Shown here: positions 37,120 through 40,006 of the stretch, piece after piece | How the letters are laid out: each line of letters opens with the position of its first letter | How positions within the stretch are numbered: position 1 is the first letter of the stretch | DNA from: a virus | Lineage: Duplodnaviria; Heunggongvirae; Uroviricota; Caudoviricetes | Virus record (IMG/VR): IMGVR_UViG_2648501839_000008 | Reading direction: 5' to 3' (one strand) | Length of the DNA stretch: 64,000 nucleotides | Position numbers and translations under genes: made by a program | The notes under the pieces: generated by a model | Databases searched by the model: none | What the model was told of the DNA's origin: nothing | What the model saw: the letters and a program-made list of their open reading frames with translations, nothing else

Positions 37120-38382
37120 ATGCCTTTTTTAATTTTCATTATTATACTACTGCTCACCGTGATTTTTTGGGATTGGGTTGTTTTAAATGGTCAAATTGTT
37201 GGAACATTGGCTACAGCATTTGCTTTTATAGCAACAGCATGGAATGCCTACGAAGCGAGAAAAAGTGCAAAAGCAGCTTTTTCAGCCCTTCAATTAACAA
37301 CAGAATCATTGTTCGAAATGCGAAAGAGTGCATTTAAACAATGGTTTGATTCCTTATTAAATCAACATGATGAGCTATGTCTTCTTGCAAAACAAATTAT
37401 CGATAAACGCAAAGTTAATTTAAACAGCGATGAGTTACATAGACTATATTACCCATTGGTAAAACAGCATGAGGTAATACAGTATGTGAAGCATATTATT
37501 AATATTTTTGAGTATGTGGATAGTTCATTTTATATTGATGGGGAATGTCTAAAGGAAAAAAGAGCGTATGTGTCACAATTAATTTTCAAAATCCCACCTC
37601 AGATGAAGTTGATCATTGCTATCTTTGGATTAAAAATCGATTATTGTGAACATATTAATTCGGGAAAACTGTGTTGTTTATTGAATAAATATGATTTTTT
37701 CAATGATGAAATATTTTTTGATGATGCTTATTCAGATATGCCTTATCTGGATGCATTCATAAACCTTAGATTCAACAAAATATTCAAATCTCGAATGATA
37801 AATTATTTTGATAATATCATTAAAAGTTATTATGTTCCATCGGACGTTAAAAGGGACTGGATGTTTCGAAACCCAAAGCTCGTGCCGTCGGTTCTTATGA
37901 ATTATAAAACTCCTTGTTCTCCTATAATTAATGATTACTTTGAGAAGTTGCCTTTACATGTAAGAAACTACTTTGAGGAACTACTTAAAACCGCGAATGA
38001 TAGAGTTACTCATTTTGACGTTTACATCCCACGCCTTATTGGTTGTTCAATCGTGCAACATTACGAAGATGTGCCTTCCGAAAAAAACAGGTTAAATGAC
38101 AGGAATGATGTAATAGCTATGGCTGAAGATTACATCGAGAAAAGAAAATATAATCAACTGGATTACATACTTGAAGATATATACTTCAAGAGTGACGAAG
38201 ATATAATCCCTGGCCACCATTTGATTGTGGCATTTGATGACTATGAATTTAAATTATCACTCATTAAGATAAATGAGAATAAAGATAGCGATAATCTTTT
38301 AAATCGAATTTATACTGAATCCAGTAGCATGGTTAAAGAATATAAGCGCGAAATATTAAAACTGGGCGACTATGTAAAGTAA
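37120..38382 (+). CDS. Membrane-anchored hypothetical protein, candidate abortive-infection-type accessory gene
   Basis: 420 aa, very AT-rich, two N-terminal TM helices then an alpha-helical soluble region; plus-strand in a minus-strand backbone. Confidence 0.6.
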   Translation: MPFLIFIIILLLTVIFWDWVVLNGQIVGTLATAFAFIATAWNAYEARKSAKAAFSALQLTTESLFEMRKSAFKQWFDSLLNQHDELCLLAKQIIDKRKVNLNSDELHRLYYPLVKQHEVIQYVKHIINIFEYVDSSFYIDGECLKEKRAYVSQLIFKIPPQMKLIIAIFGLKIDYCEHINSGKLCCLLNKYDFFNDEIFFDDAYSDMPYLDAFINLRFNKIFKSRMINYFDNIIKSYYVPSDVKRDWMFRNPKLVPSVLMNYKTPCSPIINDYFEKLPLHVRNYFEELLKTANDRVTHFDVYIPRLIGCSIVQHYEDVPSEKNRLNDRNDVIAMAEDYIEKRKYNQLDYILEDIYFKSDEDIIPGHHLIVAFDDYEFKLSLIKINENKDSDNLLNRIYTESSSMVKEYKREILKLGDYVK

Positions 38383-38400
38383 ATTGCACTGTTCAACAAA

Positions 38401-38420
38401 AAAGGGGCCGAAGCCCCTTT
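38401..38420 (+). terminator. Rho-independent terminator of gene 37120..38382
   Basis: AAAGGGGCCGAAGCCCCTTT followed by a T-rich tract. Confidence 0.65.
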
Positions 38421-38574
38421 GAATTTTGCGCTGAAAAAAGTGTTGCTAGGATGTTAGCAAGCTATGGTTAAGAACGTCTGCCGTAATTATCTATCACAGC
38501 GTTGAGCGGTCTGGTTTATGTTAGCGGAGTCTTAATCGAGTTGATTAAAAGGCCAAACCGCTCAACGCTGTGTC

Positions 38575-38660
38575 TGGCGGAGAGTAATGGAATCGAACCA
38601 TCATCGTTTGCACAATGGGACGGTTTTCAAGACCGCTTGAGCACCATGCTCCCTACTCTC
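38575..38660 (-). tRNA. tRNA-Ser (anticodon UGA), type II with long variable arm
   Basis: Reverse complement folds by eye: acceptor GGAGAGT/ACTCTCC, anticodon loop CUUGAAA, T-loop GGTTCGATTCC, 3' GCCA. Confidence 0.6.
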
Positions 38661-38981
38661 CAGCTATTGTGATGGTCGGTGCTGAACTCCGACACAGGGT
38701 TGTAGCAAGCCCCGCAAAGCGCGCACTACTGTAGTTGCGGCACATCAGCCTGTGCATTCATCACAATGGTAAGATCACTACCTTTCGACCAGTCATTGTG
38801 CACATGAACGACGATTAACCGTAATGATATTATCGTTGTGTTGTGAAGCCAGATGCTTATCTTCTGGTTGCTTCAAAGAGCTGCACTTCCTCACAACGGT
38901 AAGAGCACTGGTCTGACTCTATCGATTTACGGCCTTGTGGGTCAGTATCGCCGATTCGCCCAATGCTCTTACCTGTTGTGT

Positions 38982-39057
38982 TGGTGCCGGTTAACGGACT
39001 TGAACCGCTGGCCATTCGCTTACAAAACGACTGCTCTACCAACTGAGCTAAACCGGC
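38982..39057 (-). tRNA. tRNA-Thr (anticodon UGU), tentative
   Basis: Reverse complement GCCGGTTTAGCTCAGTTGGTAGAGC...GGTTCAAGTCC...AACCGGCACCA; anticodon loop UUUGUAA, with one mismatch in the anticodon stem. Confidence 0.55.
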
Positions 39058-39061
39058 AATT

Positions 39062-39148
39062 TGGTGGGGAGTGATGGAGTCGAACCACCCGAGTCGCCAT
39101 GACAGTAGATTTACAGTCTACACCGCTACCTCTACGGACTAACTCCCC
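39062..39148 (-). tRNA. tRNA-Tyr (anticodon GUA), type II
   Basis: Reverse complement GGGGAGT...GTAGACTGTAAATCTAC...GGTTCGACTCC...ACTCCCCACCA. Confidence 0.6.
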
Positions 39149-39153
39149 TAAAT

Positions 39154-39228
39154 TGGCGATGGTGGGTGGATTCGAACCACCGACCAGTTGGTTAACAGCC
39201 AACTGCTCTACCGCTGAGCTACACCATC
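39154..39228 (-). tRNA. tRNA-Asn (anticodon GUU)
   Basis: Reverse complement GATGGTGTAGCTCAGCGGTAGAGC..GTTGGCTGTTAACCAAC..GGTTCGAATCC..CACCATCGCCA. Confidence 0.65.
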
Positions 39229-40006
39229 AATTCAGCACTGCCAGTATTTATTACTCAACAGTGCCAATCGCGACGGTTTAGTTTCTGCCAGGAAACGCAC
39301 CGCTACTTGCACTTTTCGTTAGTGCCAGACGCTTTCGACTTCGCTCAATAGTAGAAGGCAAAATCTTTAAGTAGATGATGTTTCTGAGGACAGCACCTAC
39401 TTTGTAATTTATACAATGTGATGTATGGAATCATTTGTTGTGAAAACAGGCACCAATGGCAACAGTGGTTAAACCTACACAACAATCCCGTCTTCACAAC
39501 GTTGAGGCCACTACTCCGATTGAATGTTTGCCCAACATGTTACATATCAACGCTCGCCGGTATCTCTGTGAATAGAACCTTAGAATTGATAAAAATGTAA
39601 TGGCCTCAACGTTGTGTGCTGGCTAACCATACCAGCCGGGCTACGTCGCCGCTTTTTAACCCAGTATAAACGACATAATTGAACAAAATGACGTAACAGG
39701 ATGGGCGGTCAGTGGCTAAGAATCCGGGAGTCATATGGAGTTGAAAATATACCAACCGCCCATTCTGTTACTTCATCGGAGGGAACATGAATGTTCCCTC
39801 CTGCGTTCTGCAATCACACTCGCTCAGTGTGTCCCATTTCGGTAACGAGGCTGGAAACTGACCTCGCTGGTGTTTGGCTTATTAGGCTACTGCCAGATAG
39901 ACTTCTTCGTTTGCACTTGTATTTAAGTTCAAACAGTCGCGTCTCAACGAAAACAAAGTCATCTTATACACAAAAGATAAGTAAGTAAATACTTATCATT
40001 GTATTT

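Follow-up and report, generated by a model that had tools for sequence, protein, structure and literature searches.

Why should the 3' end of a phage tRNA be followed, within one or two nucleotides (nt), by a near-perfect hairpin of about 20 base pairs (bp)? The question is raised by a tRNA cluster on the minus strand of IMG/VR record IMGVR_UViG_2648501839_000008, a Caudoviricetes sequence of 64,000 nt (hereafter the window) whose source is a temperate phage-plasmid carrying four copies of the hairpin, one of them decayed. An earlier note on this sequence had described three inverted repeats at the cluster and proposed that they were processing signals for tRNA maturation, mobile-element footprints or small structured RNAs. 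The analysis reported here identifies the hairpins as selected RNA-level elements of the tRNA transcript, acting on the tRNA strand. We hold this conclusion with much greater confidence than the role that we tentatively assign to them, that of cis-acting processing stems.

Four hairpin copies in a phage tRNA cluster

ARAGORN predicts four tRNA genes at the locus, all on the minus strand and all encoding the CCA end; Rfam agrees and returns no further match in 37500-40500. The tRNA genes and hairpins are arranged as follows.

39495-39616, minus strand: hairpin A, stem of 20 bp, extending to 23 bp if one irregularity is allowed (CACAACGUUGAGGCCAUUAC / GUAGUGGCCUCAACGUUGUG), and structured loop of 75-82 nt
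39154-39228, minus strand: tRNA-Asn(GUU)
39062-39148, minus strand: tRNA-Tyr(GUA)
38982-39057, minus strand: tRNA-Thr(UGU)
38892-38980, minus strand: hairpin B, 20 bp plus one bulged A, with a 48-nt loop holding a portable conserved motif; 75.8 bits
38762-38840, minus strand: hairpin C', the fourth member, decayed (three pairs broken) and linked by the direct repeats D2 and D4; 56.3 bits, as a seed member of the covariance model
38575-38661, minus strand: tRNA-Ser(UGA)
38495-38572, minus strand: hairpin D, a perfect 20-bp stem with a 38-nt loop holding the conserved AAGACUCCGC; 55.0 bits

Read along the minus strand, the locus runs from a structured leader to hairpin A, a 266-nt spacer, tRNA-Asn, tRNA-Tyr and tRNA-Thr and, after 1 nt, hairpin B; it continues through a 51-nt spacer (S1), hairpin C', an element of ~100 nt (E) and tRNA-Ser to hairpin D, 2 nt further on, and ends at a terminator. 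Within the Asn-Tyr-Thr run the tRNAs are separated by 4-5 AU-rich nt and no hairpin.

A repeat finder and folding of the minus strand recovered the three inverted repeats where the earlier note had placed them, the former returning the arms 38495-38514/38553-38572 and 39495-39514/39597-39616, each of 20 nt at 95%, and the core of 38892-38980. Their placement relative to the tRNAs was accurate for hairpin D, which begins 2 nt past the tRNA-Ser CCA, and for hairpin A, which lies upstream of the cluster, 266 nt before tRNA-Asn. The adjacency of hairpin B to the tRNA-Thr 3' end also held, with its boundary moved from 38981 to 38980: the hairpin begins 1 nt past the CCA, and 38981 is a spacer base. 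The elements are indeed large-loop hairpins, but their stems, given as 16-20 bp, are all of about 20 bp, and the decayed copy at 38762-38840 had been missed. The shared arm sequence was likewise confirmed, with six exact matches to CACARYGKTRAG in the window, all within a 1.1-kb stretch at this locus. A search with the covariance model, filters off, detected no members in the window beyond the four clustered copies; the family recurs in other phage-plasmids.

As minus-strand RNA, hairpins D, B and A fold with free energies of -41.2, -39.4 and -47.8 kcal/mol (z = -9.1, -5.6 and -6.7 against dinucleotide shuffles), and none of 200 shuffled controls was equally stable for any of the three. Hairpin C' is the exception (z = -0.95): the loss of three pairs in this genome accounts for its weak folding, and its equivalents are intact (19 bp) in related contigs, such as L031 (8265-8187).

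Covariation and strand asymmetry of the stems

To assess selection on pairing, 24 diverse members were aligned and scored over a 20-pair helix. Standard pairs occupy 96.7% of the stem cells, and double-sided compensatory changes are seen at 13 of the 20 pairs (78 cells). The covariation score reaches 0.544, compared with 0.20 for column shuffles (0/500 reach the observed value) and at most 0.14 when pairing partners are slid by 1-3 columns. Orthologues of hairpin A with compensatory changes are found in Salmonella, Citrobacter, Enterobacter and Yersinia pMT1, and the inner stem GAGGCC/GGCCUC appears among the orthologues as GAAGCC/GGCUUC, GAGAUC/GAUCUC and GAGACC/GGUCUC. Sequence is kept only in the outer box CACAAC/GUUGUG; inside it, six pairs define a few subtypes (GUUGAG, GGUAAG, GCUGAA and others), followed by an inner eight that are free to vary. 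Compensatory changes that maintain a common helix across diverged members, the hallmark of a structured RNA family, are hence present.

The same stems reveal which strand is selected. Non-Watson-Crick cells read on the tRNA strand comprise 32 G·U pairs versus 5 A·C mismatches, and the covariance model favours this strand over its opposite by roughly 10-35 bits, with 69.3 bits on the minus strand and 35.2 on the plus strand for hairpin A (model R1). Hairpins are oriented along the direction of transcription in P1-like and in SSU5-like phage-plasmids; this also holds for the single lambdoid late leader examined, where both G·U pairs are in the sense of late transcription.

A constant duplex coupled to tRNA 3' ends

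Stem length, loop size and distance to the CCA were compiled by script for 74 unique members. Stems measure 19-21 bp in 55 of them (range 16-25), and loops range from 7 to 79 nt. The existence of a member with a 7-nt loop, in the D6/P1 group (L006 1278-1231), indicates that the constant unit is the 20-bp duplex and not the loop. For more than half of the members (40/74), the offset of the hairpin start relative to the CCA of an intact tRNA-Thr, tRNA-Ser or tRNA-Asn is -2, +1 or +2 nt; in the -2 cases, the final two bases of the CCA double as the first two bases of the stem. Other members follow decayed tRNA-Thr 3' ends (in P1, ...GUAACCGGCACUA directly followed by CAACG), and the same hairpin subtype is found behind different tRNAs in different plasmids. 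Many members continue directly, at their 3' base, into a conserved module, GUGAAUGC(R)CAGGCUGAUG(Y)GC, which overlaps the final stem bases and opens the E element here and its relatives elsewhere. Structure, conservation, covariation, strand, fixed stem length and coupling to tRNA 3' ends are thus all observed properties of these elements.

Distribution of the family

Escherichia phage-plasmids (CMS-2020a, Cyrano) and over 100 E. coli plasmids of ~105-115 kb match this region of the window at 96-99% identity. More divergent versions are carried by plasmids of Klebsiella, Citrobacter, Enterobacter and Salmonella (pHCM2-like plasmids of Typhi among them) and by Yersinia pestis pMT1. Members of the family are found as well in P1, P7, D6, SJ46 and Ro157c2, a P1 lineage that is unrelated and whose tRNAs are annotated downstream of C1-controlled ban promoters. 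The carriers of the family encompass P1-like and SSU5/pHCM2-like phage-plasmids, one lambdoid prophage and environmental viral contigs.

A pattern scan of IMG/VR yielded 71 loci. The same scan over one genome per species (185,579 species) returned six matches, of which only a Pantoea contig is a genuine member, and plasmids account for 719 of the 750 matching places in complete E. coli genomes. One chromosomal copy belongs to a lambdoid prophage, where it lies directly past a tR'-like terminator, with the Q antiterminator gene on one side and the holin gene on the other.

RefSeq carries no annotation of the element at the matching E. coli sites, the lambdoid copy included, and the 4227 covariance models of Rfam gave no hairpin match at E-values up to 1-10 for the window region, P1-like loci, tRNA-less loci or the lambdoid copy. 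No description of the element was found in the searchable literature, which did not reach the original P1 genome paper, where a passing mention is possible. Literature searches on P1 ban-operon RNAs, phage-plasmid hairpins and the P1 transcriptome returned nothing relevant, and the STnc100/Pas preprint is silent on hairpins or processing at these sites.

Conserved motifs in exchangeable loops

Two loop motifs stand out at this locus.

38911-38960, minus strand: B-loop motif, with further copies at L097 3520-3570 and L011 2206-2255
38524-38533, read on the minus strand: 10-mer AAGACUCCGC of the D loop, containing an anti-Shine-Dalgarno-like CUCC

Hairpin B has as its loop a ~45-nt motif, GAAUCGGCGAUAC.G.CCCACAAG.CCGU.AAUCGA.AGAG, which hardly varies among three settings: on the family stem here, on the family stem in the lambdoid late leader, and on an unrelated 7-bp stem in Klebsiella plasmids, where it lies just upstream of tRNA-Asn. 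It is absent from Rfam. D-type loops retain AAGACUCCGC in E. coli, Klebsiella, Salmonella and Citrobacter while the remainder of the loop diverges; complementary targets for this motif occur in the window only at chance level. In addition, homology links the loop of the P7/D6 hairpin behind tRNA-Ser to the leader sequence lying downstream of the lambdoid hairpin, and one P1 loop holds a textbook T-arm, AGGGUUCGAAUCCCU. As these comparisons show, some loops are constrained in their own right and are passed from stem to stem and from one phage lineage to another.

A candidate processing role and its alternatives

The role that we favour, tentatively, is that of cis-acting processing stems within one long minus-strand transcript of tRNAs and small RNAs, probably as substrates of RNase III. 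A tRNA cannot be charged while a 20-bp hairpin is fused to its CCA, and there is no single-stranded site for RNase E at this junction, since the gap between CCA and stem is 0-2 nt or an overlap. Each near-perfect duplex of ~20 bp spans about two helical turns, a size suited to an RNase III dimer. In the proposed scheme, host RNase III would cut both strands in mid-stem. The 5' half-arm left on the upstream tRNA would then turn single-stranded and could be trimmed to the CCA by 3' exonucleases, a step that would also accommodate the members whose stem overlaps the CCA by 2 nt. The upper stem and loop would be freed as a small capped RNA, and the same mid-stem cut would free the 5' end of the downstream unit. 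The stems on either side of 16S and 23S rRNA operate on a similar principle.

RNase III reportedly contributes to maturation of the phage T4 tRNA cluster, in findings attributed to McClain in 1979 and to Pragai and Apirion in 1981. A duplex of ~22 bp fits the enzyme, which cuts intramolecular stems twice in a staggered fashion and has mapped cleavage sites between genes close to E. coli tRNAs (PMC6212723). Measured against the substrate size taken from that work, an intramolecular duplex of ~20-22 bp with few irregularities, the family conforms, with stems of 19-21 bp in 55/74 members and 96.7% of stem cells paired. The fixed stem length, the optional loop, the coupling to tRNA ends and an extra 25-bp stem in the leader all fit RNase III processing, in which the identity of the nuclease, the cuts, the fate of the products and a function of the loop RNAs are what we infer.

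Several observations weigh against such a role. Hairpin D folds with similar stability on either strand (-42.7 kcal/mol on the plus strand versus -41.2 on the minus strand), and hairpin A and several tRNA-less members are not adjacent to a tRNA. Rearrangement breakpoints coincide with hairpin ends, which would fit a role at the DNA level too. Finally, the conserved CACAAC/GUUGUG box falls outside an RNase III explanation because the sequence specificity of this enzyme is weak, and it hints at a factor that reads sequence.

The hairpins might instead be the products themselves, excised whole by tRNA 3'-end processing and by RNase P acting at the downstream tRNA-like unit, with their loops operating as base-pairing regulators, protein decoys or anti-defence RNAs. 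This possibility, which we regard as unlikely, overlaps with RNase III processing and differs from it in that the loop cargo would be the functional part and RNase III would not be required. It would account for the bracketing of hairpins by a tRNA CCA on the 5' side and by E-like units starting at the stem base on the 3' side, and for the conserved islands amid variable loop surroundings (AAGACUCCGC in four genera, the B-loop motif in three contexts). However, the 7-nt-loop member and the wholly different loops of different subtypes indicate that cargo is optional, targets of the D motif in the window are at chance level, and whole excision would truncate the tRNA wherever the stem overlaps the CCA by 2 nt. 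We give somewhat less credit still to the hairpins as passive insulators, which would stop tRNAs and tRNA-like units from misfolding and deny loading stretches to Rho or RNase E without specific cleavage. The full-length fold of the 1.4-kb transcript is in keeping with insulation, being densely structured throughout with cloverleaves and hairpins forming side by side; yet a hairpin 0-2 nt past the CCA must still go for the tRNA to be chargeable, and insulation leaves the fixed 20-bp length and the terminal box unexplained.

A function as DNA, either as structure-specific recombination sites or as recombination-prone palindromes bounding tRNA/small-RNA cassettes in loose analogy to integron attC sites, seems improbable. 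The presence of one subtype behind different tRNAs, the CACAA deletion in Cyrano and the end of pMT1 homology 3-6 nt past hairpin A (both described below), and the exchange of loop cargo between P7, lambdoid and SSU5-like phages all point in this direction, and AAC...GTT is found in the conserved termini just as in attC R boxes. Against this, the stems are continuous, lacking the extrahelical bases and unpaired spacer of attC; the carrier phage lineages are unrelated, and no common recombinase was noticed among them, none having been specifically looked for; the G·U bias tracks the transcribed strand in every context examined; and repeats of 12-20 bp could yield shuffling as a by-product. That the hairpins are functionless, whether footprints of miniature inverted-repeat transposable elements (MITEs), pseudo-tRNAs or degenerate terminators, is very hard to credit: their MITE-like size (78-122 bp), the decayed copy in the window and the T-arm AGGGUUCGAAUCCCU in a P1 loop would agree with it, but compensatory changes denote ongoing selection for pairing. 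The mobile-element footprint suggested by the earlier note is the part of its proposal that found no support, whereas a processing signal or structured RNA gained support from covariation, G·U strand bias and CCA coupling.

Specific candidates of this kind were also rejected individually. A MITE or transposon footprint is contradicted by the lack of target-site duplications (flanks tt/tg for A, ct/tt for B and at/tc for D), by the restriction of copies to one locus per genome, and by arms that co-vary for pairing rather than keep their sequence. Neither ARAGORN nor the Rfam tRNA model called anything at 38495-38572, 38762-38840, 38892-38980 or 39495-39616, so that the tRNA-prediction check proposed in the earlier note does not reassign these regions as pseudo-tRNAs. 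Its statement that the elements are not ordinary terminators was correct: stems of 20 bp with loops of 38-82 nt are followed by purine-rich AUGAA, AAGAC or AUAGA and not by a U-tract, and the real terminator lies at 38401-38420. Nor is this a chromosomal repeat of the REP/ERIC type, the family being nearly absent from chromosomes and confined to phage tRNA/small-RNA arrays.

Returning to RNase III processing, a bolder extension may be envisaged, which we consider doubtful. The CACAAC...GUUGUG stem could constitute a portable processing clamp that makes an insert of 7-80 nt excisable as an end-protected small RNA and at the same time matures the preceding tRNA. P1-like, SSU5/pHCM2-like and lambdoid phages would then be swapping cargo, and the loop motifs (AAGACUCCGC and the 45-nt GAAUCGGCGAUAC...AAUCGAUAGAG) might act as regulators or decoys on host or phage targets.

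Neighbouring structured RNAs and locus boundaries

The remaining features of the operon are the following.

39617-39830, minus strand: structured leader (z = -7.8; 69 predicted pairs, 9 with compensatory changes)
39779-39800, minus strand: GC hairpin of the leader
39688-39776, minus strand: 25-bp stem of the leader, which also ends in a small hairpin, GCUGG..CCAGC, abutting hairpin A
38841-38891, minus strand: S1 spacer, conserved in P1, a short unit resembling E that borrows the ends of B and C' for its closure by GUUGUGAGG/CUUCACAAC
38662-38767, minus strand: E element, a conserved structured RNA of ~100 nt between C' and tRNA-Ser, whose 5' end overlaps the last 3-6 nt of C'
38401-38420, minus strand: intrinsic terminator, closing the tRNA/hairpin transcript and the sole terminator-like site in the operon

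Conservation of the leader extends from E. coli as far as Klebsiella and Yersinia pMT1. Several pairs of its GC hairpin covary, and its ~25-bp stem is near-perfect and unrelated in sequence to the hairpin family. Hairpin A is preceded by an invariant UUAGCCAGC, which folds into a small hairpin before A-type members.

The E element is 96% identical to its P1 counterpart and has a tRNA-like outline, with a closing stem, a D-arm-like hairpin GCAC-AGGCUGAU-GUGC (covarying to GCGC..GCGC elsewhere) and a T-arm-like hairpin; neither ARAGORN nor Rfam calls it. Relatives of the element follow family hairpins in tRNA-less viral contigs, and some of them end like the prophage small RNA STnc100. Identification of the E element itself as STnc100 was rejected for lack of an Rfam match, though some relatives share the STnc100 3' hairpin. 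In P1-like loci (L002 1718-1837, L004, L006 and L007), STnc100 matches of 33-42 bits, below the gathering threshold of 47, begin right behind a family hairpin, upstream of tciA, and have no equivalent in the window.

The annotation of P1 is also affected. Its genes upl and plp (plus strand; L002, NC_005856, 1876-2445) are antisense to three family hairpins, to the E element and to 30 nt of trnT. The loop lengths of relatives (44, 48 and 29 nt) differ by non-multiples of three, which makes it unlikely that upl and plp are genes; they are probably annotation artefacts.

The terminator is bidirectional, since a convergent gene ends at 38382. This open reading frame (37120-38382, plus strand, 420 amino acids) has no Pfam match, and the gene at its position differs among related plasmids. 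A promoter scan found no sigma-70-like promoter in 38300-40400. Pfam scans of the neighbouring proteins identified only a DNA ligase and a glutaredoxin, with no RNA-processing enzyme or recombinase; the other neighbours are small unknown open reading frames.

The tRNA-Asn/tRNA-Thr segment (38982-39228) is ~78% identical to a tRNA cluster of N4-like phages, ordered there Asn-Ser-Thr. A hairpin scan of one N4-like locus (L009) found no family member, and this likeness of tRNAs without hairpins suggests that tRNA genes and hairpins have separable histories. Two rearrangements were observed among relatives. Cyrano lacks 38670-38980 (hairpins B and C', S1 and the E element) as well as tRNA-Tyr, and its Ser-Thr junction ACACAAUU (L001 1768-1775; CACAAU), where the CACAA of hairpin B is joined to the one that closes the E element, has the appearance of a deletion by CACAA microhomology at a hairpin end. 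In pMT1 (L017 1497-1624), the leader and hairpin A are kept and all tRNAs are lost; homology to pHCM2-like plasmids stops 3-6 nt past hairpin A, right beside caf1R of the F1 capsule locus.

Significance and comparison with known systems

The element is unannotated in RefSeq and absent from Rfam in spite of its presence in P1, one of the best-studied phages, and in pHCM2 and pMT1, plasmids of Salmonella Typhi and Yersinia pestis, and the covariance model allows annotators to mark it and to avoid spurious open reading frame calls. Should the stems prove to be RNase III sites, they would show how phage tRNAs, increasingly viewed as counter-defence tools, can mature where a hairpin leaves RNase E no room. 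If the loops do have a function, new phage small RNAs could be drawn from these arrays, which would also offer a natural layout for expressing tRNA-linked small RNAs in bacteria; a portable clamp, if true, would be a bacterial counterpart of viral arrays of tRNAs and pre-miRNAs.

In such viral arrays, the tRNA-miRNA-encoded RNAs (TMERs) of murine gammaherpesvirus 68 (MHV68), which join a viral tRNA-like gene to pre-miRNA hairpins, and in mitochondrial tRNA punctuation, a tRNA is directly followed by a hairpin of ~20 bp. The likeness extends to tRNA 3'-end processing setting the 5' end of the hairpin, with an RNase III-family enzyme expected to act on the stem. Unlike TMERs, the present elements belong to a bacterial virus and to a long operon transcribed by host RNA polymerase, accompany standard and presumably functional tRNAs, and reside in bacteria, which have no Dicer/Argonaute pathway. 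Within bacteria, the Campylobacter CJnc190/CJnc180 system provides a small RNA matured by RNase III cutting a stem in its own precursor (PMC8687705); those are single loci without tRNA linkage, and not a repeated stem family.

Integron attC sites are likewise imperfect palindromes (57-141 bp) at cassette boundaries that keep structure over sequence, with only the AAC/GTT terminal boxes conserved. Compared with the attC consensus RYYYAAC / GTTRRRY, the termini NCACAAC / GTTGTGN share AAC/GTT and miss one position on each side. In contrast to attC, the stems are continuous, their only recurrent irregularity being the bulged A of B-type members, they are flanked by RNA genes, the neighbouring genes examined (a ligase, a glutaredoxin and small unknown open reading frames) give no integron integrase context, and the strand bias follows transcription. 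Resemblance to REP/BIME, ERIC and Neisseria Correia elements lies in their being transcribed intergenic palindromic repeats, and Correia hairpins are RNase III substrates; those families, however, are dispersed in hundreds of chromosomal copies.

The closest parallel is provided by the RNase III stems of rRNA operons and of phage early and tRNA transcripts (T7 R1.1-type, T4 tRNA cluster), which are also intramolecular duplexes of about two turns in a polycistronic stable-RNA transcript. Those stems bracket a segment that is freed by double-strand cleavage while nearby tRNAs are matured from the same precursor, as would be the case here under the proposed scheme. The hairpins described here differ in forming a repeated family, in carrying the CACAAC/GUUGUG box, in abutting the CCA within 0-2 nt and in bracketing a short, exchangeable loop. 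By analogy, they would represent a new, repeated, phage-borne family of tRNA-abutting processing stems with exchangeable loops, within an already known kind of element, the RNase III stems of stable-RNA operons.

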